From Bacillota bacterium (lineage in GTDB: Bacteria > Bacillota_I > Bacilli_A > RF39 > UBA660), in assembly GCA_003524085.1 (NCBI GenBank), contig DOEC01000006.1:1146-65145 (forward strand): a DNA stretch of 64,000 nt, given 5' to 3'. A program made the position numbers and the translations under genes. Shown piece after piece: positions 4,125 through 46,212 of the stretch (the first letter of the stretch is position 1; every line of letters starts with the position of its first letter). The notes under the pieces were generated by a model. It was given only the letters and a program-made list of their open reading frames with translations, did not search any database and was not told where the DNA came from.

Positions 4125-4640
4125 TTAGTTACATTCAAACACTTTATCACCAAACACATATACATTATCACTTTTTTTAGCAGTGTATTCTTTATCTTTA
4201 TACTTAAAAGTTATTTTCTTTCCTTTAATCTTACTAATTGTAACGTCTTTTTTTAGATTATCCATTAATGTATCATCTATTTGATAATCTAATATACATC
4301 CACCTGTTCCTGTAGTATAAAGTTCTGCATCTATTTCTCTATATTTTCTAGCTAAAACTTTGTTTAACTCTTCATTTAATTTTCCAGTAAATACTGAATT
4401 TATAGTATCCTCTATTTTTTCATAACTGTTATATGTACTATTAGCTGTTTTATACCAATTAACATCTTTTAATGTGACTTTTGAGTCTTCATAAACAGGT
4501 AACCCTACTCCTTCAGTAATATAAATTGACGCATAAGCTTTTTCTAATGAGTCATAAAACATTGTAGTTTTTTCTTCATCAGTTGTTCCGCATCCAGTTA
4601 ATAACACAAGTGATAAAATAACAATAATAATCTTTTTCAT
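4125..4640 (-). CDS. lipoprotein (hypothetical)
   Basis: Signal peptide with lipobox LLTGC. Confidence 0.6.
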   Translation of the reverse strand: MKKIIIVILSLVLLTGCGTTDEEKTTMFYDSLEKAYASIYITEGVGLPVYEDSKVTLKDVNWYKTANSTYNSYEKIEDTINSVFTGKLNEELNKVLARKYREIDAELYTTGTGGCILDYQIDDTLMDNLKKDVTISKIKGKKITFKYKDKEYTAKKSDNVYVFGDKVFECN

Positions 4641-4698: not shown

Positions 4699-6612
4699 CT
4701 ATTTTAACAATTTTTCTATTTTTTCTAATAGTAAGTCAAAATCAAATCCACTAGTTTCTAATACTTCTCTTTCTCTATTAGAATATACATAATCATTTAA
4801 AGTTATTAAATATTTATCACTATAAACAAATTTATTCCAAATATTATCACTACTCATTTCAATAGCTACCACTTTAGCGCCTACTGGAAATAACTCTTGC
4901 TTATACTCTTTTTCATTCTTTAAATATAAGTTAACGCTTGGCATTGATACTACTCTTGTAAATAAGCCTCTGTTTTCTAATTCATCACTTATTCTTAAAG
5001 ATAATTCTACTTCATTACCTGTTGAAACTATTACACCACCAAGTCTACCTTTTTCTTTCTTAATGATGTATGCTCCTTTACTTACTTCATTGATAGAAGA
5101 ATTATCTAACATTCCTTTATATTTTTTAGTTATAATTAATGCACTTGGTATTTTTTTATTTATAATATAGTCCCAAGAACCAACTAATTCATTCACATCA
5201 GCAGATCTCATTACATTTAAATTAGGAATACTTCTTAAATCGCTTAATTCATTAACTACTTCAGTATATTTATTATTACTTGTATCTATAAAAGTATCGT
5301 TAACAAAGATATAACTTACTGATTTTTTAATTATACTAGACATTTTAAGTGAAGACTTCATGTAGCTAGAATTACTTAAAGTTGTTTCTATTACTGGTTT
5401 TAAGTTTAGTAAAGACATTCCATTTGCTATCATACCACCTGATAAATATTTAGTACCTAAATATATAGTTTTATCTTTATCAAATTCTATTTTAGTTTCA
5501 TTTTTATTATATAAATCAATATTAATCATTAACGGGCACATACTAGAAATAGCATTAAGTAAATTATTATTTGTTTCTCTTAAGTCTTCTTGCATATTTT
5601 CATCAAATCCAACTTTGATATTTTTAATATTCATTTTAAAGTTATCTTCTTCTAATAAACTTATTATTTTTTTCTTTTCTTCATTCACTTCAATAATCTT
5701 ATTATATGTACTTACCCATTCATTATAGTAAGTGTTATTTTTTTCTAAGATATTTTTAAATTCATTATATGAACTTGCTGATATGTGATATGGCACTTGT
5801 GTAATACTCATTTTTTCTTTAACTAAAGCTAAATCGTTTTCACTTATTACATACTCATGACCCTTTGGACTTGCTTGCATACTTGTACCTATTGCTATCA
5901 TTGTTTTAATTTCAATTATGCTAGGTTTACCACTTTCTTTAGCTCTTGTAATAGCTTTATCTATTAAAGTATAATCTTCTGCATTAGTTACTGTTTCAAC
6001 AAAATAGCCTAGGCTTTCTAAATATTTAAGTTTGTTTGTGTAGCTAGATGTATCTTTTTTACCATCCACTGTAGTTTCAAATGAATTATATAAAATAATT
6101 AGATTATTTAAGTTTTCTTTAGCAGCTACTTCTAAAGATTCCATTGCTACAGGACTAGAGATGCACTCATCTGTTACTAATGTATAAGTGTAGAAATTAA
6201 TTAGTTCTTTACCAAGCAACTTTTGCATGTATTTACTACCAAGTGTAACTCCTACAGCCAAAGACAACCCTTCACCATTTTTTCCAGTTGTACTTTCAAT
6301 ACCAATACTAGGGTTAAGTTCAGGATACACACTTAGTTTACCACTTCCATAATTTTTAACATCTTCTAGTGTTATGTTGTAGCCTGAATATAAAAGTATA
6401 CTATATAATAAAGGTGCAGCACCTGGTGTGGACAATATAAATCTGTCTCTATTTATCCAAGTTGGATCAGTACTTACAAAATGCATGTGTTTTGTAAATA
6501 CCGTATATATTGTCGGTGCTAGAGAAAGCGTTAGTCCAGCGTCACCTAGTCCCCTATTATAAATCATGTCTACACTCAAACTTCTTAAAGAATTAATTAA
6601 CTTAGTATCCAT
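4699..6612 (-). CDS. transketolase-family protein with all catalytic/ThDP-binding residues substituted (likely non-catalytic)
   Basis: Full-length colinear similarity to transketolase (NRDRFILS, TTG..GEGLS, VVSMPS blocks). But SGHPG is GLGDA, NGHGS is TPGAA, GHPE is YPEL, GDG is TDE, and the DGPTHQ His region is NNKYTE. Confidence 0.75.
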   Translation of the reverse strand: MDTKLINSLRSLSVDMIYNRGLGDAGLTLSLAPTIYTVFTKHMHFVSTDPTWINRDRFILSTPGAAPLLYSILLYSGYNITLEDVKNYGSGKLSVYPELNPSIGIESTTGKNGEGLSLAVGVTLGSKYMQKLLGKELINFYTYTLVTDECISSPVAMESLEVAAKENLNNLIILYNSFETTVDGKKDTSSYTNKLKYLESLGYFVETVTNAEDYTLIDKAITRAKESGKPSIIEIKTMIAIGTSMQASPKGHEYVISENDLALVKEKMSITQVPYHISASSYNEFKNILEKNNTYYNEWVSTYNKIIEVNEEKKKIISLLEEDNFKMNIKNIKVGFDENMQEDLRETNNNLLNAISSMCPLMINIDLYNKNETKIEFDKDKTIYLGTKYLSGGMIANGMSLLNLKPVIETTLSNSSYMKSSLKMSSIIKKSVSYIFVNDTFIDTSNNKYTEVVNELSDLRSIPNLNVMRSADVNELVGSWDYIINKKIPSALIITKKYKGMLDNSSINEVSKGAYIIKKEKGRLGGVIVSTGNEVELSLRISDELENRGLFTRVVSMPSVNLYLKNEKEYKQELFPVGAKVVAIEMSSDNIWNKFVYSDKYLITLNDYVYSNREREVLETSGFDFDLLLEKIEKLLK

Positions 6613-6672
6613 ATTTTCACCTTCTTATTATAATTTAATTATAACACATGAGAAAATACTAAGCAACTATTT

Positions 6673-6828
6673 TTATGCGTAGTAAACTTCTACCTCTATT
6701 GGAGTTTTCACATTACTAGCATTTACATCTTCTATCTTTTTAGTAAGCATAAATGCAAGTATCGCTATAATAAAATAGAATAACAATATACCTTTCATAC
6801 TATTAAATAATTTTTCAACTTTTTCCAT
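6673..6828 (-). CDS. small single-pass membrane protein (51 aa), divergent from lexA; candidate SOS-linked small protein
   Basis: Not in ORF track. Sequence MEKVEKLFNSMKGILLFYFIIAILAFMLTKKIEDVNASNVKTPIEVEVYYA with RBS GGAGAGTGA. Divergent orientation from lexA is reminiscent of the yneA position in Bacillus. Confidence 0.3.
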   Translation of the reverse strand: MEKVEKLFNSMKGILLFYFIIAILAFMLTKKIEDVNASNVKTPIEVEVYYA

Positions 6829-6900
6829 TTCATTCACTCTCCTTATGCACCTATTTTATAACATATATTAGTTTGTGTCAATATTAAATCGCAAAAATGT

Positions 6901-6929
6901 TTGACAAATTTACATTTGTGTGTTAAACT
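6901..6929 (+). promoter_or_regulatory. putative lexA promoter (TTGACA-17-TGtTAAACT) with inverted repeat ACAAAT-N4-ATTTGT in the spacer (possible operator)
   Basis: Read directly. The palindrome spans 6904-6919. No canonical GAAC-N4-GTTC Cheo box is present. Confidence 0.4.
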
Positions 6930-6952
6930 ATTATCAGAAAGGATGTGAAACT

Positions 6953-7570
6953 ATGGAAAAATTAACTAAAAAACAAGAAGAAGTCTTGACAGTTATTAAA
7001 AAATACATAGCTGAACACGGCTATGCTCCAAGTGTAAGAGAAGTTTGTGAACTTATGAATTTAAGTTCAACTGCAACTGTATTCGTACATATGAGACATC
7101 TTATGAAGAAAGGATATTTAAAACAAACAGATAATAAATTTAGAACACTAGAAGTTTTAGTACCAAACGAATACTTAGAAAAAAATGAAGACGTTGTAAA
7201 CGTTCCACTACTTGGAAAAGTTACATGTGGTAACCCTATTGAAGCTATTGAGTTTCCTGATGAATACATAGCTTTACCAGCATTCATGATACCTAAGAAA
7301 GAAGAAATATTTACATTAAAAACTGAAGGAATGAGCATGAAGAACGTTGGAATATATGATGGAGATATAGTTATAGTAAAAAGACAAAAGAATGCAAAAA
7401 ATGGAGATTATGTTGTAGCACTTGATGAAAATGGATTTACTACATTAAAGACATTTTATAAAGAAAATGGATATTTTAGACTACAACCAGAAAACGAAAC
7501 TATGGACCCTATTATACTTGATAAAGTTGAGATACTTGGAATTGCAATAGGTCTATATAGAAAGTTTTAG
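6953..7570 (+). CDS. lexA: LexA repressor (S24 peptidase)
   Basis: N-terminal wHTH and a C-terminal S24 domain with Ser (GMSMKN) and Lys (TLKTFYKE). The cleavage-site dipeptide is Cys-Gly (VTCGNP) rather than Ala-Gly. Start placed at MEKLTKK. Confidence 0.85.
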   Translation: MEKLTKKQEEVLTVIKKYIAEHGYAPSVREVCELMNLSSTATVFVHMRHLMKKGYLKQTDNKFRTLEVLVPNEYLEKNEDVVNVPLLGKVTCGNPIEAIEFPDEYIALPAFMIPKKEEIFTLKTEGMSMKNVGIYDGDIVIVKRQKNAKNGDYVVALDENGFTTLKTFYKENGYFRLQPENETMDPIILDKVEILGIAIGLYRKF

Positions 7571-7616: not shown

Positions 7617-8156
7617 CTAGCATTTGCTAATTTGAACTAAATCTACTTCTACTGGTGTTTCTTGTCCAAATAAATCTATTAAAACATTTAACTTTTCGTT
7701 TTCTAAATCAATACTTTGAACTTTACCAAACATTCCATTAAATGGTCCATCAACAATTTTAACTGAATCGCCTTCTTGTAAGTCTGTTTCAATGTCAAGT
7801 CTACTAAGTCCTTCACTAGCTAGAATTTTATCTATTTCTTGTGGAGATAATGGAATTGGTTTAGCACCCTTACCACTACTACCGATAAATCCAGTAACTC
7901 CTGGAGTATTTCTAACTGCATACCAAGCTTCGTCACTCATAATCATTTCAACAAGTACATAACCTGGAAACATCTTCTTTGTTTTTTCTTTCTTAATGCC
8001 ATCTTTAATTTCAACTTCTTTAGTTTCTGGAACAATAACTCTAAAAATATTATTTCCCATACCCATTGAGTCTTTTCTCATAAGTAAGTTTTCTTTTACT
8101 TTACTTTCATGGCCTGAATAAGTATTAACAACATACCATAACTTTTGATTTTCCAT
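7617..8156 (-). CDS. nusG: transcription termination/antitermination factor NusG
   Basis: Near-colinear with Bacillus NusG (WYVVNTYSGHE, NGN and KOW domains). Confidence 0.9.
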   Translation of the reverse strand: MENQKLWYVVNTYSGHESKVKENLLMRKDSMGMGNNIFRVIVPETKEVEIKDGIKKEKTKKMFPGYVLVEMIMSDEAWYAVRNTPGVTGFIGSSGKGAKPIPLSPQEIDKILASEGLSRLDIETDLQEGDSVKIVDGPFNGMFGKVQSIDLENEKLNVLIDLFGQETPVEVDLVQISKC

Positions 8157-8159
8157 AAT

Positions 8160-8339
8160 TTATCCCACGATTCCTTTCAAGAAAGTAAATAATACATCTA
8201 GTAAGTAAAAATATCCACCAAAGAACACCATTAAAGTAAGAACCATTACTGAATACTTAAATAAATCTTTACCACTAGGCCACCTTACCATCTTTTTTTC
8301 TTTACTAACACCTTTAAAAAATGCCTTGATTTTTTTCAT
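8160..8339 (-). CDS. secE: preprotein translocase subunit SecE (59 aa)
   Basis: MKKIKAFFKGVSKEKKMVRWPSGKDL plus a TM helix. Start at 8339 with a GGAGGG RBS; the ORF-track start is further upstream. Confidence 0.85.
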   Translation of the reverse strand: MKKIKAFFKGVSKEKKMVRWPSGKDLFKYSVMVLTLMVFFGGYFYLLDVLFTFLKGIVG

Positions 8340-8418
8340 AAGTCCCTCCATAAAAAAAACACTTACGTGTTTCAGTAATTTAAATATACTACAAATTAAA
8401 GAAAAATACAAGTGTTTT

Positions 8419-9105
8419 TTAAACTTTCATTAAACTTTTTAGCCTTTTTATAGCTTTTTTTTCAATTCTTGAGATATAGCTTTGACTTATACCTAACATA
8501 TCAGCTACTTCTTTTTGAGTATATTCTTTTTGATTATATAAGCCATACCTAAGTGTTAGTATTTCTTTATCTCGTTTATTTAAGTTTTCTATTTCTTTAA
8601 TTAGAAGTTCTTTATCAACAATACTTTCATATTCCTTTTCTACTATATCATCAGGTGTTCCTAAAACATCTTCTAAATGTAGTTCGTTACCATCTTGATC
8701 TAAATTAATAGAGTCTTCAAATGAAATTTCAACTTTCCTTCTTTTATTCTTTCTTAAAAACATAAGTATTTCATTATCAATACATCTACTAGCGTATGTT
8801 GCTAGTTTTATGTTCTTGTCTAGTTTATATGTCTTAACTCCTTTGATAAGCCCGATTGTACCAATGCTAACTAAATCTTCTAAGTCATACATTGTATTAT
8901 CATACTTTTTAGCAAGAAAAACTACAAGTCTTAAGTTGTGCTCGATTAGTTTGTTTCTTGCATGCATATCTCCATTATTACTCTTAATGACTAGCTCTTC
9001 TTCCATGCTTTTTTCTAAAGGTGGTGGAAGTATATCGGTACTTCCTAAGTAAAAAACTTTTTCTTTATCCTTAAACAAACTACTTATAAAATCAAATATT
9101 TTCAT
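8419..9105 (-). CDS. sigE: sporulation sigma factor sigma-E (pro-sigma-E)
   Basis: Pro-sequence followed by ILPPPL, NLRLVV and IGTIGLIKGV, and a C-terminal QSYISRIEK. Strong match to SigE; also immediately downstream of spoIIGA. Confidence 0.85.
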   Translation of the reverse strand: MKIFDFISSLFKDKEKVFYLGSTDILPPPLEKSMEEELVIKSNNGDMHARNKLIEHNLRLVVFLAKKYDNTMYDLEDLVSIGTIGLIKGVKTYKLDKNIKLATYASRCIDNEILMFLRKNKRRKVEISFEDSINLDQDGNELHLEDVLGTPDDIVEKEYESIVDKELLIKEIENLNKRDKEILTLRYGLYNQKEYTQKEVADMLGISQSYISRIEKKAIKRLKSLMKV

Positions 9106-9106
9106 G

Positions 9107-9895
9107 TTATCCCTCCATTAATAAATAATTTAATAAAACTTCTACTTTGTTAGACTTTAACTTATCTTTTACTACACCTACTACTATATTCTTTTTTACT
9201 CCAATACCTTCTATAAATATTTTCTTAACTTTGTAACACCTCAACAATCCACCCTCATTAATACTTTGGTATGGTATATAGAAAAATGGAGTGTTTTTAA
9301 TTATACTTTCAAACTTTTTAGAATTAGTTATGATAACTGGTCTATTTGTATATGGATCTATTAAAGTGTTTCCTGTGTCCATGTAGCCTATGAGTTCTAG
9401 TTTACTTTCATTAATATAGATATCCACTTTATAATATAAACTATTAATTTCACGAATAACTTTCATTTGTTTATAATAGATATACATTATAATTGGAGTA
9501 CATATTAATATAAAGATGTAATTAATACTTATGCCTTTATGAAAAAATACCATACCAATATTCTTATAACTAAAGCTTACGTTTAAATAATATATAAACC
9601 CTCCTAAGATTATGCTTATTAAATAAAAATATACCAAGTTAGTTATAAAATACTTAAAGTCAGAATAACCAAATGTTATGAGTATTATCAAAACTGATAA
9701 AAATACCTTAAGTAAAAAGAGTGTTAAAGTAGTTAAGGGCACGAATAAAACAATGATAGTTATACTTCCTAGTAAAGAACCCAATACTATTTTTTTAATA
9801 GAAGTTCTTCTTTTAAGGACAATACTTGTAGTAAGTAAAAGTATAAAATCAAAAAAGAAGTTTAAAAATATTATTAAGTCAACATACACTTTCAT
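9107..9895 (-). CDS. spoIIGA: sigma-E processing peptidase SpoIIGA
   Basis: Polytopic membrane N-terminal half and an aspartic protease motif GYMDTGN in the C-terminal half. Adjacent to and co-oriented with sigE. Confidence 0.8.
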   Translation of the reverse strand: MKVYVDLIIFLNFFFDFILLLTTSIVLKRRTSIKKIVLGSLLGSITIIVLFVPLTTLTLFLLKVFLSVLIILITFGYSDFKYFITNLVYFYLISIILGGFIYYLNVSFSYKNIGMVFFHKGISINYIFILICTPIIMYIYYKQMKVIREINSLYYKVDIYINESKLELIGYMDTGNTLIDPYTNRPVIITNSKKFESIIKNTPFFYIPYQSINEGGLLRCYKVKKIFIEGIGVKKNIVVGVVKDKLKSNKVEVLLNYLLMEG

Positions 9896-10943: not shown

Positions 10944-11852
10944 CTAACTAATTTGCACAGTTTTATTTATTTTAAATTCTACTATAGTTACTTGATTATC
11001 TTTTACGTAATGAGCTTCAAACTTATTTACTGACTTTGTTATAATTATTCCAATAGTACTATTTTGAGTTATATTTTTTAAGTGTTCGTCAATATAGTTC
11101 ATATACGTTTTTATTTGACCATAGTCACTTTTCTTATATTCTCTTGATTTTATCTCTACTACACAATATCTACTTTCAACCACATTATAAAATAGATAGT
11201 CTATATAATTCTTTTTGTCTCCAATGTTAAGTTTATATTCTCTTCCGACGTAAAAATATCCACCGCCTAATTGTTTCATAAAACTATCTAAGTTTTCATA
11301 AATAATTTCTTGTAATATTTTTTCAGTATAAACTTCATAACTTTTATTAGGTGTTAACACTATTGGACTGGGGACACTTTGAATTAAAGAAAGTTCTTCT
11401 TTATTTAAAAGACTTTCTTTTGCTTCAGTTGAGAGTCTACCATACTCATTACTCTTTATTCTTTCAGCTAATGCTCTTTTACTTAAATTATCTCGTTTAG
11501 TAATATGAATATAATACTTAATTTCTTTGATATCTCTTAGTGATAATAAAATCTTGTAATGACTCCACGTCAATTGTCGCTCCAGTGGAGCGACTTTTTG
11601 AATTAATAAATAAAATTGTTGTATCTTATATAAATCTTTTTCCTTATATCCACTTCCAAATTCCTTAGTTAAAATACTTGCATATTTTTTTACTATTCCT
11701 TCTCCATAGTGTTTACCTGCTTCTACTAGTTCCCTTCCTATATTATAATTCATTGTAAGTTTTACATTATTTATCTGATAATTCTTAGCTACTACTTTAG
11801 CATTTCCATTTATTATTTCAGTCTTTATATTACTTAAATATTCGTCTATCAT
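10944..11852 (-). CDS. DUF1016/YhcG-family PD-(D/E)xK nuclease-like protein, tandem copy 1
   Basis: N-terminal YhcG-like block (NYNIGRELVEAGKHYGEGIVKKYA...QLTWSHY). C-terminal PD-(D/E)xK core (IDYLFYN...CVVEIKSREYKKSDYGQ). Confidence 0.7.
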   Translation of the reverse strand: MIDEYLSNIKTEIINGNAKVVAKNYQINNVKLTMNYNIGRELVEAGKHYGEGIVKKYASILTKEFGSGYKEKDLYKIQQFYLLIQKVAPLERQLTWSHYKILLSLRDIKEIKYYIHITKRDNLSKRALAERIKSNEYGRLSTEAKESLLNKEELSLIQSVPSPIVLTPNKSYEVYTEKILQEIIYENLDSFMKQLGGGYFYVGREYKLNIGDKKNYIDYLFYNVVESRYCVVEIKSREYKKSDYGQIKTYMNYIDEHLKNITQNSTIGIIITKSVNKFEAHYVKDNQVTIVEFKINKTVQIS

Positions 11853-11864
11853 AAATTTTCCCTC

Positions 11865-12773
11865 CTAACTAATTTGCACAGTTTTGTTTATTTTAAATTC
11901 TACTATAGTTACTTGATTATCTTTTACATAATGTGCTTCAAACTTGTTTACTGATTTTGTTATAATTATTCCAATAGTATTATTTTGAGTTATATTTTTT
12001 AAGTGTTCGTCAATGTAGTTCATATACGTTTTTATTTGACCATAATCGCTTTTTCTATATTCTCTTGCTTTTATTTCAACTACACAATATCTACTGTCAA
12101 CTACATTATAAAATAGATAATCTATATAATTCTTTTTGTCTCCAATGTTAAGTTTATATTCCCTACCAATAAAAGCGTAGCCTCCACCAAGTTGATGCAT
12201 AAAATCTTCTATATTTTCAAAGATTATTTCTTGTAATATTTTTTCAGTATAAACTTTATAACTTTTATTAGATGTCAACACTATTGGACTTGGGACACTT
12301 TGAATTAAAGAAAGTTCTTCTTTATTTAAAAGACTTTCTTTTGTTCCATCTGAAAGTCTATCATACTCATCACTTCTTATTATTTCAGCTAATTTTCTAT
12401 AACTTAAATTATCTCTTATAGAAATATTAGTATAATAATTGATTTTATTGATATCTTTTAAAGGTAAAAGTAATCTTATGTGTTCCCAAGTCAATTGGTG
12501 CGGCAATGCCGCACCTTTTTCAAAAAGAACATAAAATTGACGCATTCTCTTTAAATTAGATACAGAATATCCACTTCCAAATTCCTTAGTTAAAATACTT
12601 GCATATTTTTTTACTATTCCTTCTCCATAGTGTTTACCTGCTTCTACTAGTTTCCTTCCTATATTATAATTCATTGTAAGTTTTACATTATTTATCTGAT
12701 AATTCTTAGCTGCTACTTTAGCATTTCCATTTATTATTTCAGTCTTTATATTACTTAAATATTCGTCTATCAT
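11865..12773 (-). CDS. DUF1016/YhcG-family PD-(D/E)xK nuclease-like protein, tandem copy 2
   Basis: Over 85% identical to copy 1, with 12-nt intergenic gaps; differences are concentrated in aa ~68-130. Confidence 0.7.
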   Translation of the reverse strand: MIDEYLSNIKTEIINGNAKVAAKNYQINNVKLTMNYNIGRKLVEAGKHYGEGIVKKYASILTKEFGSGYSVSNLKRMRQFYVLFEKGAALPHQLTWEHIRLLLPLKDINKINYYTNISIRDNLSYRKLAEIIRSDEYDRLSDGTKESLLNKEELSLIQSVPSPIVLTSNKSYKVYTEKILQEIIFENIEDFMHQLGGGYAFIGREYKLNIGDKKNYIDYLFYNVVDSRYCVVEIKAREYRKSDYGQIKTYMNYIDEHLKNITQNNTIGIIITKSVNKFEAHYVKDNQVTIVEFKINKTVQIS

Positions 12774-12785
12774 AAATTTTCCCTC

Positions 12786-13694
12786 CTAACTAATTTGCAC
12801 AGTTTTGTTTATTTTAAATCCTACTATAGTTACTTGATTATCTTTTACATAATGAGCTTCAAACTTATTTACTGATTTTGTTATAATTATTCCAATAGTA
12901 CTATTTTGAGTTATAGTTTTCAAGTGTTCGTCAATGTAGTTCATATACGTTTTTATTTGGCCATAATCGCTTTTCTTATACTCTCTTACTTTTATTTCAA
13001 CTACACAAAAACAGTTCATTTTGTAATTGTATAAAAGATAGTCTATATAATTCTTTTTATCTCCAATATTGAGTTTATATTCTCTACCAATAAAAGAGTA
13101 TTCTCCACCAAGTTGATGCATAAAATCTTCTATATTTTCAAATATTATTTCTTGTAATATCTTCTCATTATAAAATTCATAGCTTTTATTTGGTGTCAAT
13201 ACTATCGGACTGGGTATGCTTTGAATTATTGAAAGCTCTTCTTTGTTTAAAATACCCTCTTTCGTTTCAGTTGAAAGTCTGCCATACTCATTACTTCTTA
13301 TTCTTTCAGCCAATGCTCTTTTGCTTAAATTATCTCGTTTAGTAATACTAATATAATACTTGATTTCTTCTACATTTTTTAATGGTAAAAGTAATTTATA
13401 ATGAGACCAAGTCAAAAGTTGCCCCACTGGAGCAACTTTTTGACTTAAATCATAAAATTGCTTCATTCTTGTTAATTCTGTAAAAGTATATCCCTTACCA
13501 AATTCTACCGTTAATTCCTTTGCATATTTTTTTACTATTCCTTCTCCATAATGTTTACCAGCTTCTGCTAGTTCCTTACCAATATTATAGTTCATTGTAA
13601 GTTTTACATTGTTTATCTGATAATTTTTAGCTATTACTTTAGCATTACCATTTATTATTTCATTCTTTATATTTTCTAAATAATTGTCTATCAT
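12786..13694 (-). CDS. DUF1016/YhcG-family PD-(D/E)xK nuclease-like protein, tandem copy 3
   Basis: As copy 2. Confidence 0.7.
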   Translation of the reverse strand: MIDNYLENIKNEIINGNAKVIAKNYQINNVKLTMNYNIGKELAEAGKHYGEGIVKKYAKELTVEFGKGYTFTELTRMKQFYDLSQKVAPVGQLLTWSHYKLLLPLKNVEEIKYYISITKRDNLSKRALAERIRSNEYGRLSTETKEGILNKEELSIIQSIPSPIVLTPNKSYEFYNEKILQEIIFENIEDFMHQLGGEYSFIGREYKLNIGDKKNYIDYLLYNYKMNCFCVVEIKVREYKKSDYGQIKTYMNYIDEHLKTITQNSTIGIIITKSVNKFEAHYVKDNQVTIVGFKINKTVQIS

Positions 13695-13925: not shown

Positions 13926-15368
13926 TTAAACAATTGAGAATAACATCAATACTAAAATGTTTACTATTGCAATTGTTATAACTACTTTTAATGCCCATTT
14001 GAACCAAGTTGAATAGTCTACTTTAGCAAGAGCAAGTCCTCCCATTATTGCTCCACAAGTTGGAGTTATTAAGTTTACTAATCCATTTGCACTTACAATA
14101 GTCATAGCCGCTACTTCAGTTGAATAACCTAAGCTTGCAGCAAGTGGTCCAGTTATTGGAGTTGAAAGTGTTGCAAGTCCACTACTTGATGGTACTAAGA
14201 ATGATAACACTATATGTAGTAAGTAGTTTAGTGGAACGAATACTAATTCTGGTAGTTTACTTAAATGTTCAGTTGCATTATAAATAATGTAATTGTCTAA
14301 GTAAGTTTGTTTCATTAATACAGAAGCTCCTCTTGCTACTGCTATTACTAAGATAACACCTATCATATCTTTTGTTCCATCAATAAATGTATCTACAAAC
14401 TCTTTTTCTTTGTAACCATTGATTAAAGATATTACTATACTCATTAAGAAGAACCAAAGTGCAGACTCGTAGAAGTACCAGTTACCTAAACTAGAGCCTG
14501 TAAGCCATCCAGTAAATCCATCAAAGAAAGTTATGTCAAATTCTCCCCATGGAATAAATCCTATAATCATTATTAAGAATGTTAAAGCAAAAACACATAA
14601 AGTTATTTTTTGTTTTGTAGTTAAAACTTCTTTTTGCTTTGATTTTTCCTCAAATTTACCAAATTCTTTTTCAGCTTCTTCTTGCTCTCTTAAAGAAAGT
14701 ATAGTTGAACCTTTATCTTTTTTAACTTTACTTGCATAAGCTAACACAAACAATGTTGATATTAGGTAAGCTAATAACCATAAGATTATGCCTATAAATA
14801 ATACAGTTCCTTGATTATATTCTACACCAGCTGCTCTTAAAGCAGATAATACAGCTCCTGTTGCAAATGGGTTAACTGTTGAACCAAGAACACCAGTACC
14901 AGCACCTAATAAAACTACTGCTGCACCTACAAGTGGGTCCATTCCTGCGGCAAACATCGTAGCTGCTAGAAGTACGTAGAAGCCAACTGTTTCTTCAAGC
15001 ATTCCATATGTTGTACCACAAATTGAGAAGATAAACATTAATATTGGTATTAACCATAATTCTTTACCTTTTAATTTTTGTACTAAAACTTTGATACCTG
15101 TTTCTAAAGCCTTAGTTTTGTCTATTATTTTAAGGAATCCTCCTAAAATAAGTACGAATATTGCAACATCTACAGCATTTTCAAATCCCAATATTGGTGC
15201 TAGTAAGATTTGGCTTAATTTAGCCCCTACTGTACCACTTCCATTTACTATTTCTTCACCAACGAATTTAGCATCTGGTAGTAAATGTGAAAGAATTCCA
15301 AGTACTACTATAACTATCATTATAATAGTATATGCTGATAACATGCTTCTATTCTTTTTCTTTGTCAT
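13926..15368 (-). CDS. YfcC/DcuC-like membrane transporter (putative arginine/ornithine antiporter of the ADI operon)
   Basis: Polytopic protein with YfcC-family signatures (NPF, YASKVKK); last gene of the arc operon. Confidence 0.55.
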   Translation of the reverse strand: MTKKKNRSMLSAYTIIMIVIVVLGILSHLLPDAKFVGEEIVNGSGTVGAKLSQILLAPILGFENAVDVAIFVLILGGFLKIIDKTKALETGIKVLVQKLKGKELWLIPILMFIFSICGTTYGMLEETVGFYVLLAATMFAAGMDPLVGAAVVLLGAGTGVLGSTVNPFATGAVLSALRAAGVEYNQGTVLFIGIILWLLAYLISTLFVLAYASKVKKDKGSTILSLREQEEAEKEFGKFEEKSKQKEVLTTKQKITLCVFALTFLIMIIGFIPWGEFDITFFDGFTGWLTGSSLGNWYFYESALWFFLMSIVISLINGYKEKEFVDTFIDGTKDMIGVILVIAVARGASVLMKQTYLDNYIIYNATEHLSKLPELVFVPLNYLLHIVLSFLVPSSSGLATLSTPITGPLAASLGYSTEVAAMTIVSANGLVNLITPTCGAIMGGLALAKVDYSTWFKWALKVVITIAIVNILVLMLFSIV

Positions 15369-15369
15369 A

Positions 15370-16305
15370 TTATTTTCCTCCTTTTATGACTGTACCATTT
15401 TTATATTCTAATGCGTCACTAGCGCATTCTAGCGATGTAATTATTGCAGTTTTATTTCTGTTTTCTACAAAATTTATACATGCTTCTATTTTAGGCAGCA
15501 TACTTCCAGGAGCAAACTGGTTATCACTTATATACTTTCTTGCTTCTTCTACTGTGATAGTATCTAACCCAGTCATATTTTCTTTATTGTAGTTTAAGTA
15601 TACTTTATCAACAGCAGTTAATATAAGTAACACATCAGCATCTACTTCTTTAGCAAGTAAACTAGCTGACTTATCTTTATCAATTACTGCATCTACTCCT
15701 TTTAGAAGATTATTTTCCATTATAACTGGAACTCCTCCACCTCCAGCACATATAACAATTACATCATCTTCAACAAGTTTTTTTATAACTTTGTCATTTA
15801 GTATTTTTTTAGGTATAGGAGATGGTACTACTCTTCTATATCCACGGCCTGCGTCTTCTTTAAAAATGTAACCTTTTTCACTTTCTATTACACTGGCTTC
15901 TTCTTTAGTGTAAAACATTCCAATAGGTTTAGTAGGATTTTTAAAACATCCATCATTTTTATCAACTAAGACCTCTGTTATTAAGGCTACTATAGATTTG
16001 TCAATGTCTCTTTTGTTTAGTTCATTCATTATTGACTGTTCTATATGGTAACCAATATAACCTTCACTCATACTACCACACTCTGCAAATGGCATTGATG
16101 GAGTAGCAGCACTTCCATTACTAGCATACTCCATTGCAAGAGAGATTTGCCCAACTTGCGGTCCATTTCCATGTGTAAGTATTACTTTGTTACCTTTTTC
16201 TATAAGGTCCACTATTACTTTAGAAACACCCTCTAGAATAGATAATTGTTCACTAGGAGTCTTCCCTAGAGCATTTCCTCCTAGAGCTATAACTATTTTA
16301 CTCAT
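15370..16305 (-). CDS. arcC: carbamate kinase
   Basis: [14 protein letters not shown]... family signature; operon context. Confidence 0.85.
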   Translation of the reverse strand: MSKIVIALGGNALGKTPSEQLSILEGVSKVIVDLIEKGNKVILTHGNGPQVGQISLAMEYASNGSAATPSMPFAECGSMSEGYIGYHIEQSIMNELNKRDIDKSIVALITEVLVDKNDGCFKNPTKPIGMFYTKEEASVIESEKGYIFKEDAGRGYRRVVPSPIPKKILNDKVIKKLVEDDVIVICAGGGGVPVIMENNLLKGVDAVIDKDKSASLLAKEVDADVLLILTAVDKVYLNYNKENMTGLDTITVEEARKYISDNQFAPGSMLPKIEACINFVENRNKTAIITSLECASDALEYKNGTVIKGGK

Positions 16306-17297
16306 TACTCTTCCCTCATTGTTAGATATATTACAGCTTTAATTGTATGTAATCTATTTTCAGCTTCATCAAATACTTTTGATTTTGGACTATTAAATAC
16401 TTCGTCAGTTACTTCCATTTCTTTTAGACCAAATTTTTCATATATCTCTTTTCCAATTGTTGTATTTAAATCATGAAATGATGGTAAGCAGTGTAAAAAT
16501 ATTGCGTTTTCGCTTGCATTTGACATAACACTCATGTTTACTTGATATGGACTAAGTAATTTAATACGACTAGCCCATACTTCATCTGCTTCTCCCATTG
16601 AAACCCATACGTCAGTATATATTACGTCAGCACTCTTAGTAGCAACATTTACGTCTTCTTCTAAAGTTATAGTACACCCATTAGTACTAGCAATTTCCTT
16701 ACAAGTATTAACTAACTCTTCTTGTGGCCATAATTCACGTGGAGCACATGCTACAAAGTTTATTCCCATTTTAGCACATACTACCATAAGTGAATTTGCA
16801 ACGTTGTTTCTAGCATCTCCCATAAATACTAACTTTAAGCCCTTTAAATATCCAAAGTTTTCTTCAATAGTCATAATATCTGCAAGCATTTGTGTTGGAT
16901 GAAATTCTGTTGTAAGTCCGTTCCATACAGGTACTCCAGCATTTTTGGCTAACTCTTCTACTATTGTTTGACTGTATCCACGATATTCTATTCCATCATA
17001 CATTCTACCTAATACTTTAGCAGTATCAGCAATACTTTCTTTTTTACCCATTTGACTAGCATTAGGATCTAAATACGTCACTCCCATACCAAGGTCAAGT
17101 GCAGCAACTTCAAAAGCACATCTTGTTCTAGTTGAAGTTTTTTCAAATAAAAGTACAATGTTTTTATTTGGTAAATATTTATGTTCAATATGTAATTTCT
17201 TTTTTTCTTTAAAATCTTTAGATATGTCTAGTAAAAACCTTATTTCTTCAGGTGTATAATCTAATAATTTTAAGAAATGTCTTCCTGTTAAATCCAT
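16305..17297 (-). CDS. arcB: ornithine carbamoyltransferase (catabolic)
   Basis: STRTRCAFE and HCLP motifs. Confidence 0.9.
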
Positions 17298-18541
17298 TAT
17301 ATATCCTCCCTAACTAGTGGCATACTCATACATCTTGGGCCACCTCTTCCACGTGATAATTCAGCACTTGGCATTTCAAGAACTTTTATTCCGTGTTCTC
17401 TTAGTATATTGTTAGTCATGTTGTTTCTATCGTATACTACTACTACACCAGGCGCTATACAAAGAGTGTTTGTTCCGTCATTCCATTGTTCTCTTTCACT
17501 AGATATTTTTTCTCCTCCAGCACATGGAATAAGTGTAATTTTCTTTCCAAGATATTTTTCTAATATTTCTTCTAAACTACCTTCTACTTTTTTAACATTT
17601 AAGTCTTCAAATGTAGTTGGATCATCTCCTTCAGTAATTTCGTAAACTTCTAGAGTGTTCATTATTCCTGGATGGTATGTAAACTTATCATAATCTATTT
17701 GTGTAAATACAGTGTCTAAATGCATAAATGCACGACTTTCTGGTATTTTGAAAGATAGTACTGTTTCTACTTCACAAGTAGGTTCTTTAAATAAGTTTTT
17801 AGCAAGTTCATCAATTGCGGCAGGCTCTGTTCTTTGTGAGATACCTACAGCAATAACTTTATTACTTATGTTTAATACGTCTCCACCTTCAATGTGGTAA
17901 GGTAGGTTTCTACTATAGTACCTTTTTACTTTACCCTTGAAGTCAGGATGATACTTGAATATAAAGTCAGCATATATAGTTTCTCTATTTCTAGTAACTG
18001 AATACATTCTATTTAGTATTGCCCCGTTACCACAGCTTGCGAATGGGTCTCTTGTAAAGTAGAGGTTTGGTATTGGGTCAGCTAAGAAGTCACTCTCATC
18101 ACTTACAAAGTCAACTAAGCTTTTTTCTACTTCTCTTTTTCTTAATGGTATTTCTTCTATTTTTATACCACTCATTGTTTTTAATACTAATTCTTTTTTA
18201 TCAGTAAAGCTATGTAAGTAGTCATATACTAGAGTTCTATATTTAGGAGTAGTTATTCCAGCTTCATAGATAAATTCTTTTAGAAATTCGTCTAGTATTT
18301 CTTCACTAATACTTAATACTTCACTAACTAGGTCTTCTAGATATACTACTTCTATACCATTTTCTTTTAGAATTCTTGCGAATTCGTCGTGTTCAGCTTG
18401 CGCGACTGGTAAGAAAGGTATATCATCAAATAAAAGTCTTCCTAATGTATCTGGAGTTAGATTAAGCAGTTCATTTCCAGGTCTATGAAGAAGTACTTTC
18501 TTAAGTGGACCTATTTCACTTTTAACATTAATTCCTTGCAT
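17297..18541 (-). CDS. arcA: arginine deiminase
   Basis: [22 protein letters not shown]..., 414 aa. Confidence 0.9.
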
Positions 18542-26429: not shown

Positions 26430-27926
26430 ATGAAACAAGTATTAGAATATTTAGAAAAAAATGACAAAAATAAAACAGCAGTTATATGTGAAAATGAATC
26501 TATTACATATGAAGAGTTAATTAGTAAATCCAAACTAGTTGGGTCTAACCTTATAAATAAAGTTAAAATTAATGAACCAGTAATAGTTTTTATGGATAAA
26601 GGTATAACTACACTAGAAGTATTTTTTGGTATTTTATATAGTGGTGGGTGTTATAGTTTAGTAAATCCAGAGTTTCCTCAAAATAGAATTAAATCTATTT
26701 TAAATACTCTTGAAGCAAAATGCGTTATTACAAATATAGAAAACTATGAAAAAGCTAAAGAAGTTTTTAATGGAATAAATATAATTAAGTGTGAAGATTT
26801 AGTTAGTGGTAGTATTTTAGAAAGTGAATTAGAAAACATTAGAAGATCTAAACTAGACATAGACCCAGTATATATTAATTTTACAAGTGGTAGTACTGGG
26901 GTACCAAAAGGTGTTGTAGTAAGTAATAGAAGTATAATTGATTTTATTGATGTATTTACTAACCTATTTGATATTAAAGAAAGTGACATAATTGCAAACC
27001 AAGCACCATTTGATTTTGATGTTTCAGTAAAAGACATCTATAGCGCACTTTGTAAAGGTTCTACTTTGTTAATAGTACCAAAGAAATTATTTAGTAGTCC
27101 TGCTAATTTGCTTGATTACTTAGTTATAAACAACGCTACTACACTTATCTGGGCAGTCAGTGCATTATGTTTAATTACTACATTCCACGGCCTAGACTAC
27201 AAAGTTCCAACAAGTGTTAACAAAATAATCTATAGTGGTGAAGTAATGCCTCTTAAACACTTGAAAATATGGATGGATAAATTACCTAATGTAAGAGTAA
27301 TTAACGTATATGGTCCAACTGAAATAACTTGTAATTGTACATATCATGAAGTTGACAGAAGTAGAACTTATGTAGAAAATATTCCTATTGGTAAAAGTTT
27401 TCCTAATGAAAAAGTTTTCTTACTTGATGAAGAAAACAAACTAGTTAATACTCCTAATATTTCTGGAGAAATATGTGTAAGTGGAACTTGTCTTAGTTTA
27501 GGATACTATAATAATAAAGAAGTTACAGATAAAGTATTTATGCAAAACCCACTAAACAATAAATACATTGAACCTATTTATAAAACTGGAGACCTAGCAA
27601 TGTATGATGAAAATATGGACTTGTTTTTTAAAGGAAGAAAAGACTTTCAAATTAAATATATGGGCCACAGAATAGAGCTTGAAGAAATAGACACAGAAGT
27701 ACTTAAGTTAGATGGTGTTAAAAGATGTCTCACATTATTTGATGAAAAGAAAAGTAAACTTTGGTGTTTCTATGTAGGAGAAGTTACTAAAGAGGATATT
27801 ATATCTTTCTTAAAAGTAAATGTTCCAGAATACATGGTGCCTACTAAGTATGTTAAGTTAGAAGAGTTTACTCTTACTAAAAATGGTAAAATAGATAGAA
27901 ATGTATTAAAGGAGATGATTAAATGA
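26430..27926 (+). CDS. DltA-like amino acid--carrier protein ligase (adenylation enzyme)
   Basis: FTSGSTGVPKG, NQAPFDFDVSVKDIY, GRKDFQIKYMGHRIELEEID and TKNGKIDR blocks, colinear with DltA. Confidence 0.8.
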   Translation: MKQVLEYLEKNDKNKTAVICENESITYEELISKSKLVGSNLINKVKINEPVIVFMDKGITTLEVFFGILYSGGCYSLVNPEFPQNRIKSILNTLEAKCVITNIENYEKAKEVFNGINIIKCEDLVSGSILESELENIRRSKLDIDPVYINFTSGSTGVPKGVVVSNRSIIDFIDVFTNLFDIKESDIIANQAPFDFDVSVKDIYSALCKGSTLLIVPKKLFSSPANLLDYLVINNATTLIWAVSALCLITTFHGLDYKVPTSVNKIIYSGEVMPLKHLKIWMDKLPNVRVINVYGPTEITCNCTYHEVDRSRTYVENIPIGKSFPNEKVFLLDEENKLVNTPNISGEICVSGTCLSLGYYNNKEVTDKVFMQNPLNNKYIEPIYKTGDLAMYDENMDLFFKGRKDFQIKYMGHRIELEEIDTEVLKLDGVKRCLTLFDEKKSKLWCFYVGEVTKEDIISFLKVNVPEYMVPTKYVKLEEFTLTKNGKIDRNVLKEMIK

Positions 27927-29083
27927 ACTATGAAAATATTTTAAGTAAGTACTCTACTCCACTTTTTATCTATGACTGTGATAAGTTAGAACAAAGAGTT
28001 AATTACTTAAAAAATATGTTAGATACTGATTTATGTTATGCAATTAAAGCTAACTCATTTGTTATAAAAGAAATTGAACCATTAGTATCAAGAATTGAAA
28101 TATGTTCTTATGGAGAATACATGATATGTAAAGATAATGGTGTTAAAAATGATAAGATGGTATTAAGTGGGGTTAATAAAAACTATGATGAGTTTGAAAA
28201 AATTATAAAAGAAGAAAATAATATATTAAGATACACCATTGAAAGTATTACTCAGTTTAATATGTTAAAAGAGTTATCTAGTAAATATAAGAAGAATATT
28301 AATATACTACCTAGAATTACAAGTGGTAACCAGTTTGGAATTACAAAAGAAGAACTATATTATATAATAGAGAACTTAACAGAATTTATGACTTTAACAG
28401 GTATAGAATTCTTTAGTGGAACACAAAAACACAGTATTAAGAGAATTGTTAATGAGTTTACTCTAGTTAATGAGATATTTGATTATATAGAAAACACTTA
28501 TAAACTAACTGATTTAGAGTTAGAGTATGGTCCTGGGTTACCTGTTTACTATTTTGAAGAAGAGAGTTTTAATGAAGAAGAATTTTTAAATGAAGTTAAA
28601 AACAATATTCATACATTCTTTAAAGGTAGAAAAGTTATTCTTGAAATTGGAAGAAGTTTAGTAGCAAATTGTGGTGAATATATTACTAAAGTTGTTGATT
28701 TAAAAGAAAATAAGACTGGAAAATACGCTATTATTGATGGTGGAATTAATCATTTAGTATATTATGGTGGCACGATGGGAATGATGAGACCAAAGTTTGA
28801 AATACTAAACAAAAGTAATACCAAAGAAAATATATACAACATATTTGGGTCTCTTTGCACTATTAACGATATAATTGTTAAGAATGTAAGCTTGCCTGAG
28901 TTAGAAATAAATGATACATTTGTGTTTAAGAATACTGGAGCTTATTCAGTAACTGAAGGAATTAACCTATTTTTAAGTAGAGATATGCCTAAAGTGTTAC
29001 TGCTAAAAAATAAGAATGTGTTATTAGTAAGGGACAACATTAACACATATAAGCTAAATAGTCCTAATTATGGAGGTAAATAA
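27923..29083 (+). CDS. PLP-dependent fold-type III decarboxylase homolog (Orn/DAP/Arg decarboxylase family)
   Basis: STPLFIYDCDKL...CYAIKAN (PLP Lys), EIGRSL, IDGGINH and GSLCTIND blocks, colinear with LysA-type decarboxylases. Translationally coupled to the preceding gene (ATGA overlap). Confidence 0.65.
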   Translation: MNYENILSKYSTPLFIYDCDKLEQRVNYLKNMLDTDLCYAIKANSFVIKEIEPLVSRIEICSYGEYMICKDNGVKNDKMVLSGVNKNYDEFEKIIKEENNILRYTIESITQFNMLKELSSKYKKNINILPRITSGNQFGITKEELYYIIENLTEFMTLTGIEFFSGTQKHSIKRIVNEFTLVNEIFDYIENTYKLTDLELEYGPGLPVYYFEEESFNEEEFLNEVKNNIHTFFKGRKVILEIGRSLVANCGEYITKVVDLKENKTGKYAIIDGGINHLVYYGGTMGMMRPKFEILNKSNTKENIYNIFGSLCTINDIIVKNVSLPELEINDTFVFKNTGAYSVTEGINLFLSRDMPKVLLLKNKNVLLVRDNINTYKLNSPNYGGK

Positions 29084-29084
29084 A

Positions 29085-29315
29085 ATGGAAAAATTATTAG
29101 AAATATTAGAGGAAATCAAGCCTGGTGTAGACTATGAAAATATTGATACTTTAATTAATGACCACTACTTAGATTCACTTTCTATACTTTCTTTAATAAG
29201 TGAACTAGAAGATGAATTTGATATTGTTATACCAACAGTTGAAATAATACCAGATAACTTTAATTCAGTTAAAAGTATGATGGCTCTAATTAACAAATTA
29301 AAAGAGGAAGATTAA
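29085..29315 (+). CDS. DltC-like aminoacyl carrier protein
   Basis: LDSLSILSLISELEDEFDIVIP with the phosphopantetheine Ser in a DSL motif; 77 aa; GGAGG RBS. Confidence 0.75.
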   Translation: MEKLLEILEEIKPGVDYENIDTLINDHYLDSLSILSLISELEDEFDIVIPTVEIIPDNFNSVKSMMALINKLKEED

Positions 29316-29317
29316 TT

Positions 29318-30883: not shown

Positions 30884-30894
30884 GAGGTAATGTT

Positions 30895-31818
30895 ATGAAA
30901 AATATATTAAAATCCACATTATTTTTAAGTATACTTTTAGTTATCATTATATATATGGGAAAAATCTTTACTCCTAAAGATAACACTTTAGAAAGTGGGA
31001 TGAATGAAGTAAGAGCTAATGGAATACTTGGAGAAAAAGATGATATTGATGTTATTATAATTGGAGACTCTTTAACATACAGTTCATTTATACCAATTGA
31101 GATGTATAAAGAATACGGGTTTACTTCATATGTAATGGGTACTCATGCACAAAGAAGTCATGATACTTATAAGTTACTTAAGAATGCTCTTAATTATCAA
31201 AAACCTAAAGTTGTAGTACTTGAAACTAATCTTTTATTTAGAAAATATAGTTTTAATAGAGATATGCTTAGTAAGCTTGAAACAATACTACCTTTCTTTG
31301 ATTATCATAATAGATGGAAAAATCTAAGTTTTAAAGATTTTACTAGTGAAATTAATTATACTTACACTGACCCGACTAAAGGATATATGTTAAAGAAAAG
31401 TGTTAAAAGTGGAAAGACTTATAATTATATGAAAAAAGATAGTAAAGTTACTCATATAGTTAATAGAAATTATGTTTATTTAGAGAAAATAAAAAAGTTA
31501 TGCAGTGAAAATAATATCAAGCTAATTTTGGTAAGCGCATCAAGTGAAAGGAATTATAACTTTAGTAAACATGAAAGTATTGAAAAATATGCAACCAAGA
31601 ATAAAATAGACTATATTGATTTAAACTTAGAAGATGTTAAAATTGACTGGGAAAAAGATACTACTGATAAAGGAGATCATTTGAATTATTTGGGAGCTTT
31701 AAAAGAAAGCAAGTTTTTTGGTAATATTTTAAAAGATAGGTATAATCTGGTAGATAAAAGAGGTACACTAGAAAGTTGGGATAAACTAGAAATGGTGTAC
31801 AATAAAAAAGCTAGATAG
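30895..31818 (+). CDS. membrane-anchored SGNH/DltD-like protein (putative acyl-transfer partner of the MBOAT)
   Basis: N-terminal TM anchor and a GDS-type block (VIIIGDSLTYSS); sits where dltD would be in a dlt operon. Confidence 0.45.
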   Translation: MKNILKSTLFLSILLVIIIYMGKIFTPKDNTLESGMNEVRANGILGEKDDIDVIIIGDSLTYSSFIPIEMYKEYGFTSYVMGTHAQRSHDTYKLLKNALNYQKPKVVVLETNLLFRKYSFNRDMLSKLETILPFFDYHNRWKNLSFKDFTSEINYTYTDPTKGYMLKKSVKSGKTYNYMKKDSKVTHIVNRNYVYLEKIKKLCSENNIKLILVSASSERNYNFSKHESIEKYATKNKIDYIDLNLEDVKIDWEKDTTDKGDHLNYLGALKESKFFGNILKDRYNLVDKRGTLESWDKLEMVYNKKAR

Positions 31819-39310: not shown

Positions 39311-39387
39311 GGGGAATTAGCTCAGTTGGCTAGAGCACCTGCCTTGCACGCAGGGGGTCGCGGGTTCAAGTCCCACATTCTCCACCA
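39311..39387 (+). tRNA. tRNA-Ala (anticodon UGC), CCA encoded
   Basis: Cloverleaf readable by eye with G3:U70 and anticodon loop CTTGCAC; one C:A mismatch in the T-stem. Confidence 0.8.
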
Positions 39388-46130: not shown

Positions 46131-46207
46131 TGGTCGGGAAGACAGGATTTGAACCTGCAACCACTCGGTCCCAAACCGAGTGCTCTACCAAGTTGAGCCA
46201 CTTCCCG
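46131..46207 (-). tRNA. tRNA-Pro (UGG)
   Basis: Cloverleaf by eye: CGGGAAG acceptor, anticodon loop UUUGGGA, CCA encoded. Confidence 0.85.
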
Positions 46208-46212
46208 ATAAA

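Follow-up and report, generated by a model that had tools for sequence, protein, structure and literature searches.

Loss of Catalytic Residues from a Conserved Full-Length Transketolase Ortholog in Uncultured Gut Bacilli: A Probable Pseudoenzyme at the Housekeeping tkt Locus

Introduction

The window analyzed here is a stretch of 64,000 nucleotides from an uncultured member of the Bacillota (assembly GCA_003524085.1, contig DOEC01000006.1, positions 1,146 to 65,145), in which a gene close to lexA codes for a protein of the transketolase (TK) family. The product of this tkt-like gene has retained the length and the domain layout of TK, while most of the residues required for binding of thiamine diphosphate (ThDP) and for catalysis are replaced. 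In TK, ThDP is activated by a glutamate (E411 in E. coli, E418 in yeast), the Mg2+-diphosphate is coordinated by D155, N185 and the carbonyl group of I187, F434 and F437 stack against the pyrimidine ring, and histidines bind and deprotonate the substrates. The conservation of a protein devoid of most of these residues suggests that it is probably a pseudoenzyme which is retained for a non-catalytic role.

The tkt-Like Gene and Its Product

The following features were assigned to the gene and to its product:

4699..6612, minus strand: tkt-like coding sequence with an ATG start, 637 amino acids, without internal stops; catalytically degenerate transketolase ortholog
5668..6609, minus strand: PP (diphosphate-binding) domain, amino acids 2-315; fold well kept, cofactor site remodelled
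5098..5562, minus strand: degenerate Pyr (pyrimidine-binding) domain, amino acids 351-505
4741..5076, minus strand: transketolase C-terminal domain, amino acids 513-624

The layout of PP, Pyr and C-terminal domains is colinear with TK across the full 637 amino acids, as had been proposed in a preliminary description of this DNA, and Pfam, TIGR00232, the PDB and Foldseek agree on this point. In Pfam, Transketolase_N was identified at residues 2-315 (2e-57, 195 bits) and Transketolase_C_1 at residues 513-624 (1.6e-21), and Transket_pyr scored 24.0 bits, which is below its gathering score of 27. The alignment to the NCBIfam family TIGR00232 spans residues 4-636 of 637 with 401.1 bits, compared to an equivalog cutoff of 682.25, and for NF004558 a score of 386.8 was obtained compared to a cutoff of 788. 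Among 41 sequence matches in the PDB, the best was TK from S. pneumoniae (8r3r, E = 2.3e-85, residues 5-633). An AlphaFold2 model, computed from a 12-sequence alignment, reached a mean predicted local distance difference test score (pLDDT) of 73.6. The PP domain (mostly 81-97) and the Pyr domain were modelled with confidence and the C-terminal domain was modelled poorly, probably due to the shallow alignment. With this model, bacterial TKs were identified by Foldseek as the best matches, with template modelling (TM) scores of 0.72-0.74.

Loss of Cofactor-Binding and Catalytic Residues

The tkt-like protein was aligned by MAFFT with E. coli TktA (L001) and 118 relatives, and positions are given in E. 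coli numbering. The alignment of the motifs is fixed by the identical flanking anchors DRFILS, LIILY and YIFxxD. In comparison to E. coli TktA, 16 of 21 cofactor-binding and catalytic positions are replaced, namely H26D, H66G, H100Y, L116N, G156E, E160S, N185F and I187T, together with S385E, E411Y, F434T, F437N, H461N, D469N, H473T and R520K. The same substitutions are visible in the HMMER alignments to the TKs of the PDB. Retained are G114, D155, H261 (H252 in the tkt-like protein), R358 (R345 in the tkt-like protein), and Y440.

In the PP domain, GHPG is changed to GDAG, GHPE to VYPE, GDG to TDE, and YDSNN to YNSFE, and the Pyr domain lacks E411, F434, F437, H461, D469, H473 and the GGSADL loop. 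The ThDP/Mg2+ motif GDG-X(25-30)-N is absent, with TDE (T147-D148-E149) in the place of GDG, phenylalanine in the place of N185 and threonine in the place of I187, and these states are found clade-wide. The losses thus comprise the cofactor-activating glutamate, five of the six catalytic histidines, two of the three Mg2+ ligands and the second glycine of GDG. From the set of catalytic and substrate-binding residues (H26, H66, H100, H261, H461, H473, D469, R358, S385 and R520), only H261 and R358 survive. Position 411 is tyrosine in the window protein and isoleucine or proline in the sister lineages, and for the pyrimidine-stacking set, Y440 is kept by the window protein alone among the degenerate clade. 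Because the glutamate, the metal ligands, the stacking phenylalanines and the histidines are lost together, the protein would be incompatible with ThDP catalysis by established TK enzymology, and it is predicted to be unable to bind ThDP or to carry out ketol transfer.

In the preliminary description it was claimed that every catalytic and ThDP-binding residue is lost, and a careful alignment was named as the check by which this claim could be refuted. The loss of the catalytic residues was upheld by the alignment; "every" has to be replaced by 16 of 21, since the Asp of GDG, H261 and R358 (also G114 and Y440) are kept. The exchange of GHPE had been given as YPEL, where the change of His to Tyr was called correctly and the pairing was one residue off, the correct pairing being G-H-P-E to V-Y-P-E. 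The protein had also been described as very rich in Lys and Asn. The contents of 9.1% Lys and 8.5% Asn mostly reflect the genome-wide AT bias, with 8.0% and 6.0% being present in the catalytically intact sister protein P0018. Clearer shifts relative to P0018 were identified for His (1.8 to 0.6%) and Gly (8.3 to 5.3%).

Intact Reading Frame and Purifying Selection

Relatives, labelled P0001 onward, were obtained by a search over 5.8 billion proteins. The degenerate clade P0001-P0017 shares 54-100% identity with the tkt-like protein, and all its members carry the same losses, so that orthologs with these losses exist down to 54% identity, as the preliminary description had asked to be checked. 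The full-length members are intact proteins of 632-641 amino acids, and the degenerate orthologs at 89, 73 and 54-56% identity have intact open reading frames (ORFs). Clusters of degenerate forms at 90% identity comprise 428, 631, 142 and 63 sequences. From the cluster of 428 members, to which the window protein itself belongs, 14 population variants were read, all of which are 637 amino acids long and differ by 2-6 amino acids.

The ratio of nonsynonymous to synonymous substitution rates (dN/dS) relative to the 89%-identical ortholog (L088) is 0.081 by NG86 and 0.056 by YN00, which lies inside the range of 0.02-0.14 determined for 11 neighbouring genes. Purifying selection is strong in all three domains, with values of 0.070 for the PP domain, 0.114 for the Pyr domain and 0.090 for the C-terminal domain. 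No insertion or deletion separates the gene from the 89% ortholog, and two to three gap columns were identified relative to orthologs at about 55% identity. When neutral substitution was simulated at the observed nucleotide divergences of 13-40%, the frame stayed open in 0 of 20,000 simulations. The gene is not a decaying pseudogene, because its frame is intact in variants and orthologs, dN/dS is low, and no simulated frame remained open; the possibility of such decay had been raised in the preliminary description as a second way to refute its proposal.

Redistribution of Constraint

The degenerate proteins form a monophyletic group that branches from within the intact ones in a neighbour-joining tree, and the relatives P0018-P0038, from about 50% identity downwards, are mostly intact at all catalytic positions. 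Root-to-tip distances of 0.67-0.77 were obtained for the degenerate clade and of 0.24-0.40 for the intact relatives, which shows that the degenerate clade evolved about 2.5-3 times faster. Between the species of the window and a species with an intact tkt, the identity is 88% for LexA, 81% for MraY, 75-77% for the penicillin-binding protein (PBP), and 46-49% for Tkt.

For 59 intact TKs, 169 positions were defined as at least 90% conserved. In the degenerate clade, 75 of these are retained and 12 show a new, fixed state. The remaining 82 vary, and they are concentrated in the loop G156-Y164 and throughout almost the entire catalytic portion of the Pyr domain. The invariant fraction of the PP domain is 0.36 in both degenerate and intact proteins, the one of the C-terminal domain is 0.32 in degenerate proteins compared to 0.27 in intact ones, and the one of the Pyr domain is 0.17 compared to 0.37. 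For the interdomain linker, values of 0.40 and 0.13 were obtained, on which no conclusion is based, the two sets being unmatched for divergence. Constraint has been lost mainly in the Pyr domain, and it is undiminished in the PP and C-terminal domains.

Independent Degeneration in Other Lineages

Catalytic loss in the same gene occurred independently in at least seven other lineages, all known from metagenome-assembled genomes (MAGs) of gut Bacilli. In these lineages, 4-10 of 14 catalytic positions are replaced, and all the proteins are full length and encoded at the same kind of locus. The degenerate groups were identified by the protein search (P0023, P0032/P0040, P0039, P0061, P0078-81 and P0100-P0120) and by the genome loci (L017, L034/L046, L038/L043, L048 and L051). 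In at least seven of them the closest sequence is an intact TK and not another degenerate group. Histidines are often replaced by Tyr, Phe or Asn, lexA adjoins several of the genes, and the genes come from MAGs of uncultured gut Bacilli or of the Mycoplasmatota type.

In the P0112/L017 lineage, 9 of 14 positions are lost at an identity of 80-83% to the intact L015. Here, dN/dS is 0.055 between two members and 0.10-0.19 relative to the intact relative, a pattern which fits a burst of change at the loss of catalysis followed by renewed constraint. The LexA homologue encoded upstream of the degenerate tkt in L097 (9352-9864), which belongs to the P0112 lineage, consists of only 170 amino acids, and a LexA DNA-binding domain was recorded for it with no Peptidase_S24 listed.

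Locus, Neighbouring Genes and Positional Orthology

The tkt-like gene is surrounded by the following features:

6953..7570, plus strand: lexA, Pfam LexA_DNA_bind and Peptidase_S24, product of 205 amino acids; divergent from the orf51-tkt-lipoprotein cluster
6673..6828, minus strand: orf51, gene for a small single-pass membrane protein; divergent from lexA and 60 bp upstream of the tkt-like gene
4125..4640, minus strand: gene for a lipoprotein of 171 amino acids (MKK...LLTGC), 58 bp downstream of the tkt-like gene
6638..6646, minus strand: candidate extended -10 element TGTTATAAT, a consensus match only, just upstream of the tkt-like gene
6618..6624, minus strand: strong Shine-Dalgarno-like sequence GAAGGTG, 5 nt upstream of the start codon, read from the sequence
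6853..6881, minus strand: promoter-like site TTGACA-17-TAAAAT upstream of orf51, matching 11 of 12 consensus positions and overlapping a conserved near-palindrome

The tkt-like gene had been described as monocistronic in the preliminary description. This was not borne out: it lies on one strand with orf51 and the lipoprotein gene, and no terminator-like site was identified in the 60-bp gap between orf51 and tkt or in the 58-bp gap between tkt and the lipoprotein gene, the latter spacer being AT-rich. A motif scan placed a promoter-like site at 6654-6627, overlapping TGTTATAAT, and in an alignment of the window with L088, L002 and L091, a similar element was also identified before the catalytically intact tkt. 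The upstream DNA is alignable between degenerate and intact species.

The window gene and the identical genes of L082-L087 share one order, with a divergent lexA, an ORF of 48-54 amino acids for a membrane protein, tkt and a gene for a lipoprotein of 171-180 amino acids. The same order was identified for the degenerate P0003 and for the intact P0021 (L002) and P0018 (L091). The lipoprotein gene follows tkt in both intact and degenerate loci (L088, L090, L092, L002 and L091), and on the short contigs of the degenerate P0009 and P0016 the visible part shows tkt followed by the lipoprotein gene. orf51 is called as a gene in L082-L089, and its counterparts in the intact-tkt loci L002 and L091 share 47-58% identity. 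The intact P0043 (L095) is encoded in the order lexA, orf48 and tkt, followed by the genes for PBP, MraY and FtsW. For the intact P0064 (L096), tkt is likewise followed by PBP-MraY-FtsW, with polA and not lexA located upstream. Overall, lexA is located immediately upstream of tkt in 27 of 80 related genome loci, several degenerate ones included. Because this gene order is common to intact relatives, the tkt-like gene is orthologous by position, not paralogous, to the housekeeping tkt, from which it descends and whose ancestral locus it still occupies. The neighbourhood of lexA, a division inhibitor and tkt is also known from Bacillus subtilis.

The membrane ORF of 48-54 amino acids (MEKVEKLFNSMKGILLFYFIIAILAFMLTKK...) is located at 6673-6828 (minus strand) in the window, at 9778-9933 in L002, at 5802-5954 in L091 and at 9796-9942 in L095. 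It has no Pfam match. In position and size it recalls the SOS-induced division inhibitors encoded beside lexA in Bacilli, such as YneA and SosA. The intergenic region between lexA and orf51 (6829-6952) is near-invariant over four species whose Tkt proteins are 46-49% identical. In this region, AAACA-N6-TGTT(T)-like palindromes were identified, one of which lies between the -35 and the -10 of the orf51 promoter-like site, and which may represent a variant LexA operator. The Bacillus-type SOS box GAAC-N4-GTTC is absent from this intergenic region, and its count in the whole window is at chance level.

A second tkt was not identified in the 64-kb window, where tblastn searches, for which E. coli TktA and an intact relative served as queries, recovered the tkt-like gene alone, and a tandem copy of tkt was not present within 10 kb in the 80 related loci. 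Genes for the pentose phosphate pathway or for thiamine were also not found in the Pfam annotation of about 60 kb of the window.

Other Features of the Window

At 10944-13694 (minus strand), between the arginine deiminase operon and sporulation sigma-factor genes, three tandem paralogs of 302 amino acids are encoded which contain DUF1016_N and YhcG_C and belong to a PD-(D/E)XK nuclease-like family. Three copies are present in the window and in L083, and two in L084-L087. At the same site, L088 contains three tandem genes of the phage integrase family and L082 contains unrelated genes. The region looks like a variable hotspot, possibly with a recombinase-driven switch.

The arginine deiminase operon (13926-18541, minus strand) codes for arginine deiminase, ornithine carbamoyltransferase, carbamate kinase and a DcuC-type transporter, and is consistent with a fermentative, genome-reduced gut organism. 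A dlt-like operon at 26430-31818 (plus strand) codes for an AMP-binding ligase, a carrier-like protein of 76 amino acids, an MBOAT protein and a protein of 307 amino acids. Here, a gene with the Orn/DAP/Arg-decarboxylase fold is inserted after the ligase gene, which is unusual for a D-alanylation operon. Twelve tRNA genes are clustered within 1.1 kb at 46134-47224 (minus strand), and a single tRNA gene is located at 39311-39384 (plus strand); the local GC peak of 0.40 is due to the tRNA array. Among the sporulation genes, which are located at 7617-9895 (minus strand) and at 47690-50726 (minus strand), are those for YunB, YutH and the SpoIIGA protease, the last with a sigma-factor gene next to it. 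Although it shows small-genome traits, the organism probably forms spores and has a cell wall (PBP, MraY, FtsW).

Interpretation and Alternative Explanations

The explanation we consider likely, as the preliminary description did, is that the protein is a pseudoenzyme, a dead TK ortholog which is kept for a non-catalytic role; this role may be the structural or regulatory one suggested there. It is homologous to an enzyme family of which it has lost the essential residues, its frame is intact and under purifying selection, and the losses are shared by its orthologs. According to this proposal, the housekeeping tkt of uncultured low-GC spore-forming gut Bacilli would have become a pseudoenzyme in the clade of the window. 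The cofactor site is destroyed: the diphosphate/Mg2+ site is removed by G156E together with N185F and I187T, the ThDP-activating glutamate by E411Y, and the stacking of the pyrimidine by F434T and F437N. With ThDP binding and ketol transfer predicted to be lost, the protein would work as a non-catalytic one. Most probably, a binding or scaffolding role which was already ancestral in TK would continue, carried by the PP and C-terminal domains.

Several points weigh against this explanation. The loss of ThDP binding is argued from the sequence; the dN/dS values derive from one species pair per lineage, with synonymous rates (dS) of 0.68-0.97; the tkt-like gene is the fastest-evolving one locally, with 88.8% identity compared to 91-99% for its neighbours; the structural model is weak in the C-terminal domain; and the search for another active tkt, full-length or split, or for loss of the pathway covers the 64-kb window.

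Retention of D155, H261 and R358, the last of which binds the substrate phosphate, across most of the clade also speaks for a different outcome, in which the pocket was remodelled for a new ligand (for example, as a sensor of sugar phosphates) or for ThDP-independent chemistry. We regard this neofunctionalization as unlikely. It would agree with the 12 once-conserved positions which were fixed anew clade-wide (H26D, P27A, H100Y, D183N, N185F and others), with the invariance of E179 and T180, and with the P0112 lineage, in which the catalytic positions were turned over much faster than the rest (9 of 14 at 80-83% identity) and dN/dS is raised to 0.10-0.19 between intact and degenerate forms. 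However, of the 51 conserved positions of the PP domain that changed, only 9 (18%) were fixed anew, compared to an invariance of 36% for the domain. The Pyr half varies by sublineage (E411 to Y, I or P; H473 to T, V, L or S), which is unexpected for a shared site, and the other phosphate-binding residues S385, H461 and R520 are not conserved. Since constraint on the former active-site positions lies below the average of the domain, the pocket appears to have been relaxed rather than converted, and the view that the clade-wide new residues mark a new active site was rejected as the main explanation.

In many Bacillota, tkt is split or present in more than one copy, and an active copy elsewhere in the genome might carry the flux, with the window copy being tolerated or in the course of being lost. 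The limitation of the tkt search to the window and the faster evolution of the gene relative to its neighbours are in line with such redundancy, which nevertheless seems quite improbable. Tolerated redundancy predicts neutral evolution, whereas dN/dS is 0.06-0.08 and the frame has stayed intact, with few gap columns, across lineages at 54% identity, as it did in none of the neutral simulations. The close relatives P0018, P0021, P0043 and P0064 are all encoded at the same locus, no sign of a paralog family was found among them, and the 80 related loci contain no second tkt within 10 kb. Moreover, a second tkt would explain why catalysis is dispensable, but not why the dead copy is conserved. 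Least probable by far is an ordinary active TK which only appears degenerate through AT-biased divergence and misalignment. The low GC content of the genome (28%) and the identity of 23-24% to E. coli TktA would make such an artefact conceivable, yet equally AT-rich relatives (the L002 and L091 loci, 27.6% GC, 45-50% identity) keep all these residues. Each motif is flanked by identical anchors, the MAFFT alignment and the HMMER alignments to the PDB concur, TIGR00232 is reached with 401 compared to 682 bits, and the Pyr domain falls under the Pfam gathering score, so that the artefact is effectively refuted.

With the pseudoenzyme being the likely explanation, it can be asked why a dead protein is conserved at full length and under strong purifying selection in at least eight separate lineages of genome-reduced gut Bacilli. 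This would be explained if the lexA-linked TK of Bacilli had an ancestral second function, non-catalytic in nature, which is preserved by selection in place of pentose phosphate flux. We propose this generalization tentatively, with doubts outweighing confidence, and it is equally tentative that the protein takes part, for example, as a binding partner in the control of the envelope, of division or of stress.

TK is a universal enzyme of central metabolism, and the finding is of practical relevance, since automatic annotation would normally label the gene as "transketolase", and the nonoxidative pentose phosphate pathway would by mistake be counted as present when the metabolism of these abundant, uncultured Bacilli of the human gut is reconstructed. 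The recurrent dead housekeeping orthologs point to a non-catalytic function of TK, so far undefined in bacteria. If this holds true, the dead proteins are natural separation-of-function variants by which the hidden function becomes directly testable.

Comparison to Known Systems

A paper on a bacterial TK pseudoenzyme or on a non-catalytic role of this kind was not found in the searchable literature, in agreement with the preliminary description, in which such proteins were held to be uncharacterized in bacteria. In the literature examined on gut lineages with reduced genomes, tkt was not addressed for this group.

The closest known system is the bacterial TktA-type TK (TIGR00232; E. coli 2R5N/1QGD, S. 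pneumoniae 8R3R, S. aureus 8R3S), with which the window protein shares the domains, the length, colinearity over 630 residues and 75 of the 169 family-conserved positions. Its gene occupies the position which the active tkt has in sister species, and the adjacency to lexA is shared with other Bacilli. In contrast to these enzymes, the window protein lacks E411, five of the six histidines, the second Gly of GDG, N185/I187, the stacking phenylalanines and the GGSADL loop, is far under the equivalog cutoff, and is about 14 residues shorter than its intact sisters.

In humans, TKTL1 and TKTL2 are likewise TK homologues of doubtful catalysis, in which active-site elements are missing and for which noncanonical roles are discussed. 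TKTL1 lacks 38 residues, including cofactor-binding and catalytic ones, and a TKT model protein with this deletion (delta-38) was inactive (PMC3485151). The inactivity of TKTL1 and TKTL2 has, however, been contested (PMC6334435). While TKTL1 and TKTL2 are paralogs beside an active TKT, the window gene is the housekeeping ortholog itself, is bacterial and is conserved in its clade. Further, TKTL1 is degenerate by one deletion, whereas the window protein is degenerate by about 17 point substitutions over two domains.

For the active E. coli TktA, binding to the repressor MarR has been reported (Domain et al. 2007, as cited in PMC3905653). This gives a precedent for a regulatory role of TK by protein binding, apart from catalysis, as it is assumed in the preferred explanation for the window protein. 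However, E. coli TktA is fully active, with MarR binding being added to its catalysis, and a MarR-type partner is not indicated for the window protein, for which no test aimed at such a partner was made.

Like the window protein, pseudoenzymes in general are homologues of enzyme families which have lost catalytic residues and are under purifying selection. Pseudoenzymes as such are well known, and most documented ones are paralogs. In contrast, the dead copy described here is located at the ancestral housekeeping locus, and the novel part is a dead but clade-wide conserved housekeeping ortholog of a central enzyme, paralleled by repeated independent degeneration in related lineages.

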